Shown piece after piece: positions 3,966-38,554 of a stretch of 41,019 nucleotides of DNA (position 1 is the stretch's first letter; every line of letters starts with the position of its first letter). The DNA lies in IMG/VR virus record IMGVR_UViG_2671180770_000025. One strand, written 5' to 3'. The position numbers and the translations under genes were made by a program. Under the pieces are notes generated by a model. The model made no database searches and had not been told where the DNA came from. It saw only the letters and a list, made by a program, of their open reading frames with translations. The stretch comes from a virus (taxonomy: Duplodnaviria > Heunggongvirae > Uroviricota > Caudoviricetes).

Positions 3966-4433
3966 TTTGCTGCTCCTCATCATATCGACCCTGCAAGGTC
4001 GGTTAGTTTCTCCACAAAACAGAGAAGAACACCTGCGGTGACTGCCGCCCGGATGGATTGGGTTATGAGCCCGTCGTCCGGTGATGCTCTTCTCTGTTTT
4101 GTAAAAAGGACGGTACCAGCCGGAAGCAAGGGTACAAGCTGGTACCGCCAAGACTACACACAGCATAAAGTTGTGGTGCCGGGTGCCTCCCGGTGCCTGG
4201 CGAAGGTTGCACACCAGGCGGGTGGGTATCCACAGAAGGTCGACTGTCAGCCTCAACCTTAACCCGCGTGCGCTGAGCCGCATTCACCACAACGCTAAGG
4301 ATTCTCTCTGGTTGAAAATACTTAGCTGTTATGTGCCTGCTTTTAGCCACATCAGGCGAGGTGGACCTAGTTATTCCCCAACAACAAGGATTCGGTTAAT
4401 CTGGTTATCCCCAACAACGCAAAAGGAAAAGAA

Positions 4434-8129: not shown

Positions 8130-8618
8130 ATGAGTCTTTTGAATGACGTTCAGAAATTCATTGAAGCCCATCCGGGGTGTACTTCCGGAGACATTGCGGA
8201 TGCTTTTGCAGGTTACTCACGACAGCGCGTTCTGCAGTCAGCAAGCAAGTTACGTCAGAGTGGGCGTGTGGCTCACCGTTGTGAAGGGGATACACGCAGA
8301 CATTTCCCGCGGCTGACTGAGATACCGCAGGAGCCGGAACCGCAACCAGTTCGTGAATCCAGACCTGTGCGCAATTTCTATGTCGGCACTAACGATCCCC
8401 GGGTGATTTTGTGCCTGACCCGCCAGGCGGAAGAACTGGAGTCCAGGGGCTTATACCGTCGTGCTGCAACGGTGTGGATGGCGGCATTCCGTGAAAGCCA
8501 CTCCCAGCAAGAGCGAAACAATTTTCTTGCGCGTCGTGAACGGTGTTTACGGAAAAGCAGTAAGCAGGCTGCATCAGGTGAAGAGTGGTATCTCTCAGGG
8601 AATTACGTGGGGGCTTAA
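8130..8618 (+). CDS. Hypothetical regulator, possibly PerC-family
   Basis: C-terminal LESRGLYRRAATVWMAAFRESHSQQERNNFLARRERC resembles the PerC conserved region as recalled; N-terminal winged-helix-like segment. Confidence 0.35.
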   Translation: MSLLNDVQKFIEAHPGCTSGDIADAFAGYSRQRVLQSASKLRQSGRVAHRCEGDTRRHFPRLTEIPQEPEPQPVRESRPVRNFYVGTNDPRVILCLTRQAEELESRGLYRRAATVWMAAFRESHSQQERNNFLARRERCLRKSSKQAASGEEWYLSGNYVGA

Positions 8619-9271
8619 TGAGTAATAAATATTGCCAGGCGCTGGCGGAACTGCGGAACAAACCAGCCCATGAACTGAAGGAAGTGGGCGATCAGTGGCG
8701 CACGCCGGACAACATTTTCTGGGGAATTAACACCCTGTTTGGCCCGTTTGTTCTGGATCTGTTCACTGACGGTGATAACGCCAAATGTGCTGCGTATTAC
8801 ACGGCGGAAGACAACGCGCTGGCGCATGACTGGTCAGAACGCCTTGCGGAGCTTAAAGGTGCTGCCTTTGGTAATCCCCCATACAGCCGCGCCAGTCAGC
8901 ATGAGGGGCAATACATTACCGGCATGCGTTACATCATGAAGCATGCCAGTGCCATGCGTGATAAAGGCGGGCGCTATGTTTTCCTGATCAAAGCTGCCAC
9001 CAGCGAAGTGTGGTGGCCGGAAGATGCAGATCATATTGCTTTTATTCGCGGGCGTATTGGTTTTGAACTGCCTGCCTGGTTTATCCCGAAGGATGAGAAG
9101 CAGGTGCCGACAGGCGCTTTCTTCGCTGGTGCTATTGCTGTTTTCGACAAGACCTGGAAGGGACCGGCAATCAGCTACATCGGGCGCGATGAACTTGAGG
9201 CATGTGGTGAGGCCTTTCTGGCGCAGGTTCGCCAGCAGGCAGAAAAACTGGTCAGGGAGATGGCGGCATGA
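8618..9271 (+). CDS. dam: Phage DNA N6-adenine methyltransferase (Dam-like)
   Basis: Catalytic motif FGNPPYS (DPPY-type); ATG overlaps the upstream stop (TAATG). Confidence 0.75.
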   Translation: MSNKYCQALAELRNKPAHELKEVGDQWRTPDNIFWGINTLFGPFVLDLFTDGDNAKCAAYYTAEDNALAHDWSERLAELKGAAFGNPPYSRASQHEGQYITGMRYIMKHASAMRDKGGRYVFLIKAATSEVWWPEDADHIAFIRGRIGFELPAWFIPKDEKQVPTGAFFAGAIAVFDKTWKGPAISYIGRDELEACGEAFLAQVRQQAEKLVREMAA

Positions 9272-11819: not shown

Positions 11820-12572
11820 ATGAACCTTGAAGCCTTACCGAAATATTACTCCCCAAAATCTCCAAAATTGAGCGATGACGCACCGGCGACAGGCTCTGGT
11901 GGTTTAACAATTACGGATGTGATGGCTGCGCAGGGGATGGTGCAGTCGAAAGCACCGCTTGGGTTTGCCTTATTCCTGGCAAAAGTTGGTGTTCAGGATC
12001 CTCAGTTTGCGATTGAAGGTCTGCTCAATTACGCGATGGCACTGGATAACCCGACATTGAATAAATTGAGTGAAGAAACCCGGCTACAGATTATTCCTTA
12101 CCTTGTGAATTTTGCCTTTGCTGATTATTCCAGGTCTGCGGCAAGTAAGGCTCGCTGTGAGCATTGTGCTGGTACTGGATTTCATAATGTATTGCGCGAA
12201 GTGGTGAAACACTCCAGAAGCGGGGAATCTGTTATCAAGGAAGAGTGGGTGAAGGAACTATGTCAGCATTGTCATGGTAAGGGAGAAGTCAGCACAGCGT
12301 GCAGAGGGTGTAAGGGTAAAGGTATTGTCCTGGATGAAAAAAGGACCCGGCTTCATGGCACGCCTGTTTATAAGATTTGTGGGCGTTGCAATGGAAATCG
12401 GTTTAGCCGTTTACCAACCACACTGGCGCGGCATCATGTCCAGAAGCTGGTACCAGACCTGACGGATTATCAGTGGTACAAAGGATATGCAGATGTCATT
12501 GATAAACTGGTGACAAAGTGCTGGCAGGAAGAAGCATATGCTGAGGCGCAATTAAGAAAAGTGACGAGATAA
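11820..12572 (+). CDS. Q: Late-gene antiterminator Q
   Basis: Cys-rich zinc-finger region (CEHCAGTG ... CQHCHGKG ... CRGCKGKG ... CGRCNG) in a lambdoid Q-like protein directly upstream of a strong promoter and terminator; SD GTGGAGAA. Confidence 0.7.
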   Translation: MNLEALPKYYSPKSPKLSDDAPATGSGGLTITDVMAAQGMVQSKAPLGFALFLAKVGVQDPQFAIEGLLNYAMALDNPTLNKLSEETRLQIIPYLVNFAFADYSRSAASKARCEHCAGTGFHNVLREVVKHSRSGESVIKEEWVKELCQHCHGKGEVSTACRGCKGKGIVLDEKRTRLHGTPVYKICGRCNGNRFSRLPTTLARHHVQKLVPDLTDYQWYKGYADVIDKLVTKCWQEEAYAEAQLRKVTR

Positions 12573-12603
12573 ATGATTTTCGCCGAAGATGGCGACATGA
12601 TTC

Positions 12604-12632
12604 TTGCATTTTTCAAAAAATTTGGTTAGGAT
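12604..12632 (+). promoter_or_regulatory. Candidate late promoter PR' (Q action site expected here)
   Basis: -35 TTGCAT (12604..12609), 17-nt spacer, -10 TAGGAT (12627..12632), about 30 nt after the Q stop. Confidence 0.5.
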
Positions 12633-12678
12633 TCTCCTAACGATGGGCTTTGTGTGTCTACCGTTGATAATCTTCAAG

Positions 12679-12702
12679 AAACCGCCACCGAGCGGTTTTT
12701 TA
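12679..12702 (+). terminator. tR'-like intrinsic terminator about 40 nt after the PR' start
   Basis: aaaccgc-caccga-gcggttt followed by a T-run. Confidence 0.55.
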
Positions 12703-12860
12703 TTGATGTCAATTGTGTTTTTAAGGCTCTCCTTCCTTAAAGTGTGTTGTACAAAAAACTGGCAGCCAGCTACGCTCATTTTGAAAAAGTGACACCCTTC
12801 AATGTTTCTTTTGAATGGAATTGCTACCCATAAATCTCTATCAAAAACAGGAGAGCATAT

Positions 12861-13103
12861 ATGGTGGAGCGTTGTTCTGTTTGTGAGCAGTCATTAAGTT
12901 ATTCACGAGAAGTTGAACAAGATGGCGTTGAATATAAATCTTGCCCAAAATGTTCTGCTGATGCCGGAGTGCACGTTTTTTATAAAACAATAGACTTTGG
13001 TTATAGGGATATGGGAGACGGAAGGCATATCGTTCAGTCATGGTGTCCGGCTTGTCGTTCTGGTGAAAAACCTTCTATACCACCAGCATTTAAATGTTGT
13101 TAA
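12861..13103 (+). CDS. Hypothetical 80-aa Cys-rich (zinc-ribbon-like) protein, moron between Q and the holin
   Basis: SD CAGGAGAG 5 nt upstream; CxxC pairs (CSVCEQ, CPKCS, CPACRS); AT-rich; own terminator downstream. Confidence 0.5.
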   Translation: MVERCSVCEQSLSYSREVEQDGVEYKSCPKCSADAGVHVFYKTIDFGYRDMGDGRHIVQSWCPACRSGEKPSIPPAFKCC

Positions 13104-13123
13104 CTCAATGAATTATAAAAAGA

Positions 13124-13147
13124 GGCTGCCTGTGGGCGGCCTTTTTT
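13124..13147 (+). terminator. Intrinsic terminator after the Cys-rich moron
   Basis: ggctgcc-tgtg-ggcggcc stem-loop followed by tttttt. Confidence 0.55.
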
Positions 13148-13234
13148 GTGCACTACGCAACTTTTGCGACTCAGCGCTATAACCAGCTTCTTTCCCTTCA
13201 CTCGTTGCACTTCCGATAACCGGAGGTGGGAATT

Positions 13235-13576
13235 ATGAAAATGCATAACGATCCTCATTCCTGGTCTGACTTACTTGAATTGTTACAGAGCTGGTGGCGT
13301 GGAGACACACCGCTGGGCGCAGTAATTATGTCGATCGTTATGGCTGGCTTGCGCATTGCCTATTTTGGCGGTGGTGGTGGCTGGAAGCGAAAAACGCTCG
13401 AGATTTTGCTCTGCGGCGCTCTGACGCTGACTTTTGCATCCGCTCTTGAGTATGTCGGATGGCCTAAATCGCTTTCTGTTGCCATTGGTGGTGGCGTTGG
13501 GTTGATCGGTGTCGATGCTATTCGTGGGGCTGCAATGAGAGTAATCGGTAACAAGTTTGGTGGCTCTAAGGAGTAA
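13235..13576 (+). CDS. S: Holin, lambda S-like with dual-start motif (Met-Lys-Met)
   Basis: ATG-AAA-ATG start preceded by SD GGAGG; predicted transmembrane segments; directly upstream of the endolysin. Confidence 0.6.
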   Translation: MKMHNDPHSWSDLLELLQSWWRGDTPLGAVIMSIVMAGLRIAYFGGGGGWKRKTLEILLCGALTLTFASALEYVGWPKSLSVAIGGGVGLIGVDAIRGAAMRVIGNKFGGSKE

Positions 13577-13579
13577 TTT

Positions 13580-14056
13580 ATGCAGGTACTAAATTCCCAG
13601 CGTAAAGCTTTCCTGGATATGGTTGCATGGTCAGAAGGAACGGATAACGGGCGACAACCGACACGTAACCACGGTTATGATGTTATTGTCGGTGGTGAAA
13701 TGTTTACTGATTACTCCGATCACCCTCGCAAACTTGTCACGCTAAACCCCAAACTCAAATCAACAGCCGCCGGACGTTACCAGCTTCTTTCCCGTTGGTG
13801 GGATGCCTACCGTAATCAGCTTGGCCTGAAAGACTTCTCTCCCAAAAGTCAGGACGCTGTGGCATTGCAACAGATTAAAGAGCGTGGCGCTTTGCCGATG
13901 ATTGATCGCGGTGATATCCGTCAGGCAATCGACCGTTGCAGCAATATCTGGGCTTCATTGCCGGGTGCTGGTTACGGTCAGTATGAACATAAAATCGGTG
14001 ATCTGATTGCCCGGTTTAAAGAGGCTGGTGGGGTGGTAAATGAAGTTGAGCTATAA
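13580..14056 (+). CDS. R: Endolysin, lambda R-like lytic transglycosylase (158 aa)
   Basis: Close match to lambda R as recalled (NQRKAFLDMVAWSEGTDNGRQ.TRNHGYDVIVGGE.FTDYSDHPRKLVTLNPKLKSTAAGRYQLLSRWWDAY). Confidence 0.85.
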   Translation: MQVLNSQRKAFLDMVAWSEGTDNGRQPTRNHGYDVIVGGEMFTDYSDHPRKLVTLNPKLKSTAAGRYQLLSRWWDAYRNQLGLKDFSPKSQDAVALQQIKERGALPMIDRGDIRQAIDRCSNIWASLPGAGYGQYEHKIGDLIARFKEAGGVVNEVEL

Positions 14057-14432
14057 GTTGGTTATCGCTGCATTCTTCTTTACTGTCATCGGTTCTTTCA
14101 TCTGGTCTGCCAACCACTACTACAGCAAATATCAGCACGAAAAGAAACGTGCTGATGAGGCTGTACAAAATGCCAAATCGGCAACTGTCATTACCAATAA
14201 CGTCCTGCAATCACTGCAAATCGTCAATACAGTTCTGGAGGCTAACCAGCATGCAAAACAGCAGATCGCACTGGGGTCACAGAGAACCCAGGAAGATATC
14301 AAAATGGCTGTTGCGGATGATGATTGTGCTTCACGTGCTGTGCCTGCTGCCGCTGCTGACCGGTTGCGGAAGTACGCGGACAGTTTACGTGAGCGTTCCG
14401 GTGGCACCACTGCCACCCAGCCTGACTTCTGA
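14040..14432 (+). CDS. Rz: i-spanin (Rz-like)
   Basis: N-terminal transmembrane segment (LVIAAFFFTVIGSFIW) then a charged helical periplasmic region; start overlaps the R 3' end. Confidence 0.6.
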   Translation: MKLSYKLVIAAFFFTVIGSFIWSANHYYSKYQHEKKRADEAVQNAKSATVITNNVLQSLQIVNTVLEANQHAKQQIALGSQRTQEDIKMAVADDDCASRAVPAAAADRLRKYADSLRERSGGTTATQPDF

Positions 14433-14603: not shown

Positions 14604-14801
14604 ATGACAGTAGTTCTTACAGCAAAACAGATTGAAGACCTGTCAGCCTTCGCAAAAGAAGATGGCCAGCCCAAGTACACCATCACCACCGGGACAATCC
14701 CGAAATTCGAAGCAGAAGATGGCGAGATTATCCCTGAATACACAGGACTGATCGCCTACTCAGAGTCACTTGAGCGCGGTGTGTTGCAACTCGACGACTA
14801 G
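14604..14801 (+). CDS. Hypothetical 65-aa protein after the lysis cassette
   Basis: SD GAGGAA 7 nt upstream of ATG 14604. Confidence 0.4.
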   Translation: MTVVLTAKQIEDLSAFAKEDGQPKYTITTGTIPKFEAEDGEIIPEYTGLIAYSESLERGVLQLDD

Positions 14802-14869
14802 CGGCATTACAGCAGTCATTCACTGAGTGTATGAGATATAGCAAATTTGTATAGTATCGGAAGCGAGCA

Positions 14870-14905
14870 TTTGACATGGCTAACAATCTCAAAAGCCATG
14901 TCAAA
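14870..14905. promoter_or_regulatory. Perfect 11-bp inverted repeat with 14-nt loop between convergent genes (possible terminator or binding site)
   Basis: tttgacatggc ... gccatgtcaaa. Confidence 0.35.
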
Positions 14906-14912
14906 GCTAATC

Positions 14913-15263
14913 TTATTTATTGAAGATCTGAAATAGAAGGCTACATATCGTAGCAATATTTGCCCCATAAGATAGGTATTTTGTAAACCCTATTCTATCA
15001 AATACAGTTAGCTGCTCTTGTTCAGTAGTAGCTTTGCTACTTACCAGCTCTTCATATGCCTGCTTTAGTTGTTCCAGAGGCGTTTCAGCTCTAATTCCTG
15101 CTGCATGAAGAGCCTGGATATTATCTTTATAGTTGACTCCGTGTCCTTCATTTTCAGAGATATCAGTACCTATTATGACTAAATCTAAAGGATTACCGGC
15201 CTCGACTCTAATGCCATCACCGCCATTACCTTTAATACGGCCACCAATTAATGTTAATGTCAT
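14913..15263 (-). CDS. Hypothetical 116-aa protein, AT-rich moron on the minus strand
   Basis: SD AAGGAAAG 8 nt upstream of ATG 15263; GNGGDGIRVEAGNPLDLVIIGTDISENEGHGV looks beta-helix-repeat-like; no lipobox. Confidence 0.5.
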   Translation of the reverse strand: MTLTLIGGRIKGNGGDGIRVEAGNPLDLVIIGTDISENEGHGVNYKDNIQALHAAGIRAETPLEQLKQAYEELVSSKATTEQEQLTVFDRIGFTKYLSYGANIATICSLLFQIFNK

Positions 15264-15521
15264 TAATACTTTCCTTTATCAGATGAAAAATAAATTCTAT
15301 TTTATATCACTAGCCACGTAAAAATATAAAGAATATTTCCAGAATTGTTGTGGCTCACATTTTCTATAACTAAATACTATATCGCTGTCGTCTTTGAGTA
15401 AATGCTACTTAATCTGTCTACAAGCATTTTTATAGTCATCACAATGGGCGGATCCATCGTAATGGCTTAACATGAGCACTACTATGCTCCCTGCAAAAAA
15501 CACATAACAGAAGGGCGGACA

Positions 15522-35931: not shown

Positions 35932-37821
35932 TTAATCGTGTTTTGGCCATACTTTCAATGCAATTTCCCCCAACTTTTTACCCCGCTCCAGGATTTCATC
36001 CTCATCCCATTTATCCTTAACTATAAGTGGAATGTTCAGTCGTAGATTGGTGTGGACGATGAGAGCATCACGTTTTTTCAGAAATACAGCATTCTGAACA
36101 GAACGGTTTACGCTAAGGTTAAGCAAAGTTAGATTTCCCAACGTAGCTATCGCTTGTTGCCGTTTCCTTACCAGTAGCTGTTCAGGGGTAAGATCGGTTC
36201 CAGACAGAACAATTTGGTTCAATACCGTAGCATCTGAATTTGTCACCATATGACCATTTTCGAGAGGCCAACAGGAATACCAACTTTGAGGCATAAGATG
36301 ATCGATATCGAGGTTAGAAAGATTTGGAACATCAGGCTTCTCTGTCTTCACTTGGCGACAAAGTTCTCTTTCAAGTTCCGTTAACATTGAGCGCATTTTC
36401 GGTGCGTCGAGCCTGCCAGGATAAAGTGGAGCATTGATGCAAGCGTTGAGAAATTCTGAGTCCCCAGGCCAACGTGAGGCTTCGCCATTTAAGCTATTGA
36501 GGATATTACGTAACTCAACACTGGAAATTTCCGTTTTAGACAAGTGCCGCAATACATTCATAAATACATTGTTGTAATTCTTTGGCGTCAGGCCACATAC
36601 GGCTCTTCGTACTACGTAGGAGACAAGATCATTATACATGGCTGCTTTCTCATCATCGGCGATGTTAGCTATCGAAATGAACAAAGCAAGCGGATAAAGT
36701 GTCGTCACATCATAGGCTGCGATGCGATGTCCAAAGTGTGAGATGGGGGTTGTGCCAAAACCACCAACCAATTCTTTATATTGTGATGCATATTGTTTGA
36801 GGCGCTTTACTTGCAGATCTGCTCGTTGTGAAGGCAAGTCCTTACTTACATAATCACGATACTCATTGTAAAGACGAGACAGATCGATTTCACGTTGCCT
36901 TTCTGATTGCAATGTCGCATGCACTAGCCACTCCATGCGTGGTTTATTAATACGACCACGACGTTGTCTTTCTGACCAGTACGTATCTTCAAAGATCTTC
37001 CACTCATTCTCATATAATTCAACAGCATTAATATTTTCATGTTCAGCGCACATAAAAATATAATTGCGAATAAGATCTGTGGCATGAAGTTCCGCACCTC
37101 TGCCATTTAATGTTTCAAAAATTATTTGAGCGTCATCTTCAGCCTCGAGAAATATGCTTACTAGTTTCAGATCCGTCAAGACAGCCTCAATTAATGCTAC
37201 AGCATTTTCTCGTGGTGAGTGATTTTCTATTTTAATCCACTTTATAAAGGCTTCAGTAAAAAAACATAATGCTTCTAGTGATGGCGGGTGATTAAAATGC
37301 TTACGCAACGTACCATGCTGCGTGAAACTATCAGAGAATACATTCCGGATATCGTCAATATTTTCAACATTAAAACTTTGAATAAAATGAGTTTGATCCC
37401 GAAAAGTTGGCCACAGTTTGAAGCGCTCTACTTCTTTATTTCGCATTGTGTCTTCGTTTGAGTTTTTCAGGCAAGACGAAATGAGAGGCTCTAAGTTGGA
37501 AAGATCTGTCGCACGTAATGCTAATCGGATGGATGCCAGAACATATTGAAGAGTGGTCAATCGTTGCTGACCATCAATAATATGTATGGAATCTACACCT
37601 AATAATCCTTTTTTTGGTTGAGGTTCCAGTACCACTGCACCAAGGAAATGGGGAGTTGGTTTTGTACCCGAGAGCCGGGATTGTGCTTTCTCTAGGATAT
37701 CCTCCAGTAGAGCTGACCATTGGTTTCGCTGAGTCCATACATAGGCACGTTGATAGAATGGAACGCAGTATTGTCGGCGGTCTTGAAAAAGTTGTTGGAC
37801 AGTTAGCGTCTCGGATTTCAT
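35932..37821 (-). CDS. DUF262/DUF1524 two-domain nuclease (GmrSD-like, candidate type IV restriction / anti-phage enzyme); start may be 37881
   Basis: N-terminal DUF262 motifs (VPFYQRAYVWT, IIDGQQRLTTL); C-terminal DUF1524-like His-Me motif (NLDIDHLMPQSW); about 40% GC cargo. Confidence 0.7.
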   Translation of the reverse strand: MKSETLTVQQLFQDRRQYCVPFYQRAYVWTQRNQWSALLEDILEKAQSRLSGTKPTPHFLGAVVLEPQPKKGLLGVDSIHIIDGQQRLTTLQYVLASIRLALRATDLSNLEPLISSCLKNSNEDTMRNKEVERFKLWPTFRDQTHFIQSFNVENIDDIRNVFSDSFTQHGTLRKHFNHPPSLEALCFFTEAFIKWIKIENHSPRENAVALIEAVLTDLKLVSIFLEAEDDAQIIFETLNGRGAELHATDLIRNYIFMCAEHENINAVELYENEWKIFEDTYWSERQRRGRINKPRMEWLVHATLQSERQREIDLSRLYNEYRDYVSKDLPSQRADLQVKRLKQYASQYKELVGGFGTTPISHFGHRIAAYDVTTLYPLALFISIANIADDEKAAMYNDLVSYVVRRAVCGLTPKNYNNVFMNVLRHLSKTEISSVELRNILNSLNGEASRWPGDSEFLNACINAPLYPGRLDAPKMRSMLTELERELCRQVKTEKPDVPNLSNLDIDHLMPQSWYSCWPLENGHMVTNSDATVLNQIVLSGTDLTPEQLLVRKRQQAIATLGNLTLLNLSVNRSVQNAVFLKKRDALIVHTNLRLNIPLIVKDKWDEDEILERGKKLGEIALKVWPKHD

Positions 37822-38554
37822 GGTATACCTGTAAGCGACATTGTACAAAAGTGAGGAGTTAATCTGATTTAGAACAATCATTTTATGTTGCTATGATACA
37901 ACGTATTTGTTACCGGTTAAGTAAAAAACGCGTCTGAACGCTGACGTTTTAGGGCTTTACTAGTTATTCTTTCTTATCTCTTCATCATCCCATCGGCATC
38001 CTGTCGAGGTTGTTGACTTGTTGTTATTTATTTTGTTTAGGCGCTGTTTAATTATTATTGATGGGACTGGTGGTGAGAGGTGATTGAAACCGCAGACAGG
38101 TCGTATGCAAGACGTGCTGCGGTTGGCTGGTAAATGTTAGATAGTGCGAGTATTGAATGATTTCTAGCCGTTATTGATTTTACGTATTTTTGTATGAGAG
38201 GATTTGCATCTCCTGCCACCGACCCTCCATGACTTTACGCCACTGTCTCTAGGGCTGCTATGTGCCAAAAGCGGAAGTTGAGGGGGGATGGCAAGCACTC
38301 GTATCGTGGCAAAATTTTGGCTACCGCTTCTCCCGGTCGCAACCGATTTAGTTGACTATGGCGCGTGTGTTAATCAACGGGGAGGAAGTTAGAGGAAACA
38401 ATAAATAAAGACATAACCGTCTGTTTTTATTTAAATTATTGACTGATGCGAGGAGTTGAACTTCCGATACCCCATGATATCTTACTTAGATAGTGAGATG
38501 ATCTAAGATACACTATATAAGTTACAATCTAGCCGGAGATGTAGGAGGGAGTAT

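Follow-up and report, generated by a model that had tools for sequence, protein, structure and literature searches.

The window analysed here, a stretch of 41,019 nucleotides from a Caudoviricetes virus (IMG/VR record IMGVR_UViG_2671180770_000025), harbors a small gene for a cysteine-rich protein of 80 amino acids between the gene for the antiterminator Q and the lysis genes. This cargo gene is a late-operon moron of a lambdoid E. coli prophage, ordinary in kind, carried as a discrete and swappable cassette, and its open reading frame (ORF) is a genuine conserved gene. New here is the association of its predicted zinc-binding domain with restriction-modification (R-M) systems, which appears undescribed: distant relatives form part of nucleases and recur beside adenine methyltransferase genes. 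We tentatively consider the protein a stand-alone, phage-captured form of an undescribed two-zinc domain that might serve as an accessory or sensor of adenine-methylation restriction systems, and whose late expression might let progeny be modified or escape restriction. A sequence-only reading made earlier had left the function open; the links of the domain to R-M add to that reading without contradicting it.

The protein matches phrog_7682, a family of unknown function, over its full length (residues 1-80 against profile positions 1-80 of 80, E 7.2e-60). The exact 80-residue sequence was found on at least 1000 public contigs of E. coli, Salmonella and Morganella, where it is labelled hypothetical throughout; PGAP likewise names WP_001306866.1 a hypothetical protein, and no mention of this accession was found in the literature. 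The median ratio of non-synonymous to synonymous substitution rates (dN/dS) was 0.18 over 404 usable homologue pairs. Across 20 clusters at 55-99% identity C5, C8, C28, C31 and H38 were invariant, and C62, C65 and C79 were kept in at least 90%. These eight conserved ligands fit two zinc sites, from which zinc binding is predicted. In the broad family the two knuckles KSCPxCS and QSxCxxCR are retained, and polar residues are conserved there as well (KSCPxCS, QSWCxxCR). The AlphaFold2 model of the protein has a mean predicted local distance difference test score (pLDDT) of 84.6 and consists of beta-hairpins and short helices that begin at the CxxC knuckles.

Since the ORF is short, belongs to no Pfam family and is left unannotated by PGAP in some genomes, it could be regarded as spurious, a chance frame within a non-coding leader. 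This explanation is refuted by the conservation data and retains practically no probability: the PHROG match covers the whole protein, the Cys/His pattern is kept down to 55% identity, and dN/dS is low. Moreover, Shine-Dalgarno motifs (GGAG or AAGGAG, a few nucleotides 5' of the start codon) are found in most prophage-borne homologue loci, the structural model is confident, and the distant relatives described below include fusions. The poor conservation that, according to the sequence-only reading, would mark a spurious ORF was thus not borne out by the family search.

Searches of known domain families gave little further guidance. No Pfam family reached its threshold (Zn_ribbon_TFIIB, PF13453, 14.9 bits against a cut-off of 22), and in NCBIfam the score of TIGR02605 (CxxC_CxxC_SSSS) was 19.5 bits against a cut-off of 31.3. 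The zinc-binding character in the earlier description of the protein as zinc-ribbon-like is supported by its eight conserved Cys/His ligands; no zinc-ribbon model reaches its curated cut-off. No solved structure or predicted viral structure resembling the protein was found. By tblastn no match was obtained among 50,697 deposited phage genomes; viral occurrence of the family consists of prophages and metagenomic viral contigs.

With the family profile, 277 representatives were retrieved at E <= 1e-3 among 1.84 billion proteins, most of them stand-alone proteins of 60-110 amino acids. Distant loci beyond the close family were located with a degenerate DNA pattern. The domain also forms the N-terminal module of PUA-like nucleases of about 350 amino acids that carry a C-terminal McrA-like HNH domain (Zn-PUA-HNH nucleases), and the profile of the 80-residue family matches P0073, P0089, P0119 and others over residues 1-80 with E-values of 1e-7 to 1e-11. 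In further fusions the domain is joined to a NOV_C/PD-T4-1-like nuclease or stands at the C-terminus of a DGQHR (DndB/DpdB-like) protein. Many relatives of about 165 amino acids have in common an N-terminal region that resembles DUF3553, as judged by a Pfam scan for P0139 (E 8.5e-7) and by eye for the others. An apparent fusion of a methyltransferase with the zinc domain in L228 was rejected, as it arose from a stop-to-stop ORF in DNA of high GC content; the methyltransferase is encoded next to the zinc protein in another frame. The zinc module is not mentioned in a survey of EVE/PUA nuclease architectures, and the solved enzymes VcaM4I (EVE-HNH) and McrA/TagI are without it. The window protein in turn has neither PUA nor HNH domain. 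As it is without the catalytic parts of the Zn-PUA-HNH nucleases, it shares a domain with them and is not one of them.

The shared module would also suit an anti-restriction decoy, i.e. a stand-alone N-terminal module that binds the nuclease or its partner, blocks enzymes of the Zn-PUA-HNH or a related type and thereby shields under- or foreign-methylated progeny DNA. Apart from the homology to the N-terminal module of HNH nucleases, a shift in charge is compatible with such a role, since the close relatives from prophages have a slightly acidic pI of about 6 and the distant and fused, enzyme-borne copies a basic one of about 8.6. In addition, homologues co-occur in the late operon with orphan methyltransferases, which are another anti-restriction tool. 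However, stand-alone copies inside cellular R-M operons are left unexplained by this idea, as an inhibitor would defeat the system, and the searches made here brought up no fused Zn-PUA-HNH nuclease from E. coli. Furthermore, the protein shows no similarity to known anti-restriction proteins (the Lar-like phrog_6422 gave E 0.7 without a matched stretch). No family of the PADLOC defence library was matched at E <= 10, which excludes no more than membership among the known defence proteins. We regard a decoy as unlikely.

To the fusions the gene neighborhoods add a second link to R-M. In all six readable neighborhoods of the fused genes, which come from Firmicutes and metagenome contigs, the gene directly adjoins a D12-class (Dam-like) methyltransferase gene, and in four of the six also a DpnII gene. 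Such an arrangement resembles the pairing of enzymes in classical R-M rather than modification-dependent restriction. Other distant loci have the order D12 methyltransferase, zinc protein, DpnII (L101, L102), D12 methyltransferase, DUF6996/6997/7226 protein, zinc protein (L093, L094, L105, L106) or PF01555 methyltransferase, DpnII-like gene, zinc protein (L257). In L124, L131, L142 and L165 the zinc protein is directly followed by a PF01555 methyltransferase, and in L228 it adjoins a phage-Dam-like one. Taken by count, a methyltransferase gene adjoins the stand-alone homologue in 9 of about 14 distant genome loci and in 6 of 13 distinct distant viral loci.

Several islands of Firmicutes and of contigs are richer in content. 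L107, L111, L114 and L119 (positions 1 to about 8000) hold DpnII together with a D12 and one or two PF01555 methyltransferases, and their additional genes encode TIR-domain proteins, AIPR, an Mrr_cat nuclease and a Zn-PUA-HNH nuclease, which suggests composite GATC-centred defence islands.

The position of the zinc protein within R-M operons raises the question if it is a controller-like regulator, a small DNA-binding zinc protein that originally timed mobile methyltransferase or R-M modules, was brought into the phage slot and regulates its own neighborhood or the methyltransferase gene. The C proteins of type II R-M systems are likewise small, encoded in R-M operons and sometimes located directly 5' of the nuclease gene, as is the zinc protein in L101. 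Moreover, in the E. coli prophage L004 an ORF of 67 codons, winged-helix-like by eye, precedes a methyltransferase of the family that follows the zinc protein in L055, L056 and L043, and the DGQHR/DndB-like fusion partner has a known regulator in its family. Known C proteins, however, are helix-turn-helix (HTH) and not zinc proteins, whereas the family studied here has a Cys7His domain with a model made mostly of beta-hairpins and no HTH match. The gene order is variable, with the zinc protein before or after the methyltransferase or nuclease gene, and the window offers no adjacent gene to control. The acidity of the close family and the N-terminal fusion to nucleases, which is more in keeping with a targeting or sensor module than with a repressor, further speak against a controller, and we consider it improbable.

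Among Enterobacterales prophages the association is looser. A methyltransferase gene adjoins the homologue in about 11 of about 45 distinct loci, which encode orphan enzymes of the PF01555 type (L043, L050/51/73, L055/77, L056, L078, L063-65) or of the MT-A70 type (L052, L074, L075, L076). The idea that the PF01555 enzymes beside prophage homologues are close orthologues of those in DpnII clusters was discarded, as the similarity is at the level of motifs only. Together with the distant loci, the adjoining methyltransferases belong to four families (PF01555, MT-A70, D12 and phage-Dam-like), and such neighborhoods are found repeatedly in Proteobacteria, Firmicutes and Bacteroidota, in phages as well as elsewhere. 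Methyltransferase genes make up well under 1% of bacterial genes; against this background, adjacency with four families in three phyla would be far above chance.

These counts bear on a further explanation, according to which the protein is a small zinc protein unrelated to DNA modification (an Ogr-like late factor, a lysis-timing or a host-directed protein) and its methyltransferase neighbors reflect co-location in a hotspot. Most Enterobacterales loci indeed are without an adjacent methyltransferase, the slot is a general hotspot that also takes up tRNAs, other small Cys-rich ORFs and large genes, and homologues are also present in the cargo region 3' of gene A in P2-like prophages. P2 Ogr and P4 Delta are, like the window protein, zinc proteins of temperate phages with about 70-80 amino acids. 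They are of the Cys4 type, whereas eight ligands are conserved here, and the P2-like copies lie in the cargo region. No match of the 80-residue protein to Ogr/Delta, holin-related, HTH or HNH families was found. A role in lysis is further disfavored by the lack of a membrane segment or signal peptide in the sequence and by a position that is independent of the holin family, and hotspot co-location alone accounts poorly for adjacency that spans phyla, families and non-phage loci. We judge an unrelated role to be rather doubtful, though less so than the decoy or the controller.

The R-M accessory reading draws on both the occurrence of the domain in PUA-HNH nucleases and its place beside adenine methyltransferases, from which a role as an accessory of adenine-methylation or restriction systems is suggested. 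Several observations weigh against it. In the window no methyltransferase gene adjoins the cargo gene; the nearest, for a phage N6-adenine methyltransferase (8585-9271), belongs to the early operon and lies 3.6 kb upstream. An adjacent methyltransferase gene is likewise missing for about three quarters of the homologues in Enterobacterales prophages, and the Photorhabdus homologues lie in a non-phage chromosomal islet that is without one. The acidic pI of the close prophage family weakens a simple DNA-binding model for this member. Finally, late expression cannot protect an infecting genome, so that an anti-restriction role would act on progeny DNA.

The boundaries of the cargo were obtained by comparison with sister prophages. 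In L004, which has the same Q and holin, homology to the window stops at 12701, the end of the tR'-like terminator, and restarts at 13223, 12 nucleotides 5' of the holin ATG. Over the sister prophages the left breakpoint spans 12701-12712 (12701-12705 for L004, L002 and L003). Across the cassette the GC content is 0.37-0.41, compared with 0.47-0.57 in the flanks. The corresponding slot of L004 contains the 67-residue ORF and a PF01555-type DNA methyltransferase gene, and that of other sister prophages a 59-residue Cys-rich ORF, an 85-residue ORF, or a 141-residue ORF with a tRNA and a large gene. The whole interval of 662 nucleotides was present in 23 of 5426 complete E. coli genomes. At the nucleotide level the unit common to the window and the Q21-type prophage L041 comprises 12849-13149, i.e. 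Shine-Dalgarno sequence, ORF and terminator. The gene thus shows the features of a moron, namely insertion between flanks that are filled differently elsewhere, its own terminator and deviant composition; its own promoter is missing from this set, as none was found by the plus-strand scan of 12400-13400. The earlier placement of the ORF ahead of the holin in the Q-to-holin cargo slot is confirmed by these breakpoints.

Two of the alternative occupants deserve mention. The 59-residue ORF (L002:3204-3383), from a sister prophage with a matching Q, encodes a zinc-ribbon-like protein (CSNESC...CPYC) that is unrelated in sequence to the 80-residue protein. The 67-residue ORF of L004 (L004:3253-3456), winged-helix-like by eye and located 5' of the PF01555 methyltransferase gene, stands before the methyltransferase family that is found 3' of the zinc protein in Kosakonia and Enterobacter prophages, so that alternative small proteins pair with one methyltransferase family.

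Cargo of this kind is well known from lambdoid phages, where the interval between Q and holin carries stx1/stx2 and nanS-p in Shiga toxin (Stx) phages and tRNAs or methyltransferases elsewhere; slot, replaceability and deviant base composition are the same. Unlike the Stx cargo, the gene of the window encodes no toxin. It is a single ORF of 80 codons without A/B subunits and without a detected promoter of its own, and the N-terminus of its product (MVERCSVCEQ) has no hydrophobic leader or signal peptide, in line with the earlier statement that the protein is not toxin-like in size or signal.

To see how general this position is, 60 loci from IMG/VR and 39 from GTDB were examined. In nearly all prophage loci the Enterobacterales homologues were found between the Q gene and the lysis cassette, in Escherichia, Salmonella, Citrobacter, Enterobacter, Kosakonia, Atlantibacter, Proteus, Xenorhabdus, Sodalis and Yersinia. 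The Q gene is of the Qλ type in the window, L074 and L075, and of an unrelated short Q21 type (PF06530) in most loci; at least four combinations of holin and endolysin occur beside the homologues. As the slot is occupied across these backbones, the family has repeatedly been placed first in the late transcript. Exceptions are the P2-like prophages mentioned above and the Photorhabdus islet. In the latter (L080-L087 and L091, around position 4000) a homologue of 49-61% identity lies outside any prophage together with a gene for an XRE-type HTH protein, flanked by a DinG-like helicase gene and zwf.

In the Q21-type prophages the Q gene is followed by two to three cargo genes on the reverse strand and then by a motif of about 45 nucleotides, CTAACGCGTACGCAAAAACTATCGTAAnCTGTTAAGAGTGGTC, which is located about 150 nucleotides before the homologue (L031-L065, e.g. 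L038:2860-2915; L066:2501-2545; L067:2501-2556). Among complete E. coli genomes, 410 contain it; in two inspected loci it was found upstream of tRNAs or holins with the homologue absent, and part of it is annotated by PGAP as a 36-residue 'antiterminator' ORF. The motif probably represents the late promoter and Q-utilisation region of the Q21 lineage, displaced from Q by the inserted cargo. The reverse-strand cassettes that many prophages carry between Q and this motif are diverse. They consist of two genes (e.g. L045:2510-3791, L048:1362-2994 and L057:2330-3716, all on the minus strand) that pair a soluble protein, in one case with a match to DUF6731, with a multi-pass membrane protein. None of them is matched in PADLOC, and their appearance is that of defence or exclusion cargo not yet characterised.

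The features of the late region of the window are listed in Table 1.

Table 1. Features from the Q gene to the lysis genes in the window, in order of position.
Feature	Coordinates	Strand	Basis
Q antiterminator gene, Qλ family, 250 amino acids	11820..12572	+	PF03589 E 9.5e-54; phrog_127 E 6e-109
PR'-like late promoter: -35 TTGCAT (12604-12609), 17-nt spacer, -10 TAGGAT (12627-12632)	12604..12632	+	read from sequence
AACGATGGG, candidate sigma-dependent pause element (-10-like) where the transcript is predicted to begin	12639..12647	+	read from sequence
tR'-like intrinsic terminator: AAGAAACCGC, loop CACCGA, GCGGTTTTTT	12676-12701	+	RNA fold: 10-bp stem, U6 tail
Low-GC cargo cassette, 521 bp	12702..13222	+	blastn breakpoints against L004, L002, L003; GC
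Shine-Dalgarno sequence AGGAG, 7 nt 5' of ATG	12849..12853	+	read from sequence
Gene for the 80-residue Cys7His protein, zinc-binding (predicted), WP_001306866.1, phrog_7682	12861..13103	+	profile match, conservation, dN/dS, AlphaFold2 model
Intrinsic terminator of the cargo gene: 13-bp stem, 4-nt loop, U-run	13118..13147	+	RNA fold
λ-family holin S, first lysis gene	13235..13576	+	PF05106 E 4.7e-28
Endolysin	13580-14056	+	3' of holin
Rz (Rz/Rz1)	14040-14432	+	3' of endolysin

The interval of interest (12573-13147) opens at the base directly 3' of the Q stop codon. PF03589 is the Qλ family (PMC9388147), and a gene of this family lies immediately upstream of the cargo region. The PR'-like promoter and the tR'-like terminator described in the sequence-only reading were both located in front of the ORF, so that a terminator stands between PR' and the downstream genes. 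The promoter was missed by a consensus scan of the plus strand because its hexamers match the sigma-70 consensus at 7 of 12 positions only, which is below the scan threshold; it is conserved together with AACGATGGG and Q. AACGATGGG begins six bases past TAGGAT and is presumably identical to the first bases transcribed from λ PR', where the -10-like sigma-dependent pause element lies. The first 93-140 nucleotides 3' of Q are common to about 199 complete E. coli genome records (197 genomes). For the predicted leader of 75 nucleotides a folding energy of -22.5 kcal/mol (z -3.0) was calculated. Published Q cassettes consist of the Q gene, PR', a pause element, a terminator and the late genes (PMC9388147), and the predicted arrangement of the window from Q to the late genes matches this layout.

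The predicted transcript from PR' to tR' (12639-12702, about 64 nucleotides) would contain a 5' hairpin and the terminator hairpin. Short RNAs at the corresponding position 3' of Qλ-family genes are regulatory small RNAs in pathogenic E. coli (PasD/STnc100; bioRxiv 10.64898/2026.05.13.724894). A known RNA of this kind was looked for in the leader of the window, and no match at E <= 1 was obtained in an Rfam search.

Further downstream, the strong Shine-Dalgarno sequence and the gene's own terminator reported in the sequence-only reading were likewise recovered, the latter with a folding energy of -21.2 kcal/mol (z -3.6). Translational control by sequestering of the Shine-Dalgarno sequence was considered for the window, as a complement of 8 nucleotides is present at 12726-12734, and was rejected, the pairing probability being 0.52 compared with 0.59 in shuffled sequences. 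The same prediction over the 150 nucleotides 5' of the ATG of homologues, again compared with shuffles, gave pairing of 0.86-0.99, above nearly all shuffles, in L044, L049, L051, L052, L055, L069, L075, L076 and L078. The modelled folds hint at translational control in these lineages, unlike in that of the window.

As to transcription, no sigma-70-like site on the plus strand reached the scan threshold in 12400-13400, and manual inspection of 12703-12860 gave nothing convincing. As no own promoter was found, the cargo gene is most plausibly expressed by read-through from PR' under antitermination by Q. Q-dependent expression on induction is expected from the logic of the Q cassette (PMC9388147) and is, judged from the anatomy of the region, the most plausible mode here. 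In this scheme PR' would fire constitutively and transcripts would end at tR' as long as Q is absent. After induction Q would load at the pause element, and the polymerase would pass tR', the cargo gene and the cargo terminator to reach holin, endolysin and Rz, so that the cargo protein would be made together with the proteins for lysis and packaging. Leakage past tR' in the lysogen would be low at most, and the second terminator would probably stop it short of the lysis genes.

The product would be a small protein of the cytosol that carries eight conserved metal ligands. According to the R-M accessory reading, the domain might be an accessory that targets, senses or regulates, and its point of action might be either the enzymes or their common substrate, DNA in the region of adenine-methylation sites. 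For the prophage copy this could mean that phage DNA has its methylation or restriction adjusted after replication and shortly before it is packaged, a role of the restriction-alleviation type. That the late cargo protein modulates methylation or restriction of progeny DNA in some such manner is a serious possibility, short of an even one, and we hold it with somewhat more confidence than the specific view of a captured accessory or sensor domain. In this respect it may be compared with λ Ral and Rac Lar, which likewise are small, Cys-containing proteins encoded by phages or prophages, with a proposed influence on the balance of methylation and restriction, a functional class to which the window protein may belong. 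Ral and Lar are encoded by early-region genes and act on type I systems. The gene of the window, in contrast, is part of the late operon, is not related to them in sequence and has relatives associated with Dam/DpnII-type and other adenine methyltransferase systems.

Outside the late region, two further loci of the window resemble cargo. A second island of low GC content (0.32-0.40) spans 14800-15500 between Rz/Rz1 and the HNH and terminase genes and contains a hypothetical ORF of 116 codons on the minus strand (14913-15263, WP_021574410.1), which looks like another moron. At the far end of the prophage, beside tail-fibre genes and a recombinase remnant, an ORF of 649 codons (35932-37881, minus strand) is annotated by PGAP as a DUF262 domain-containing protein. 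We take DUF262 to be the family of the type IV enzyme GmrSD, and the ORF may be a defence gene of the window prophage.

Since the Q-to-holin slot carries induction-coupled cargo such as Shiga toxin, each of its recurrent occupants is worth knowing. The occupant described here occurs widely among Enterobacterales, E. coli and Salmonella included, yet it is annotated merely as hypothetical. The link through its domain provides a concrete and testable functional context and draws attention to an unnamed zinc domain family in R-M biology. If the R-M accessory reading is true, a late-expressed helper of restriction alleviation or methylation would join the counter-defence repertoire of phages, and GATC-type R-M systems would gain an additional component, so that the family would represent both a new class of restriction-alleviation factors and an R-M accessory domain.

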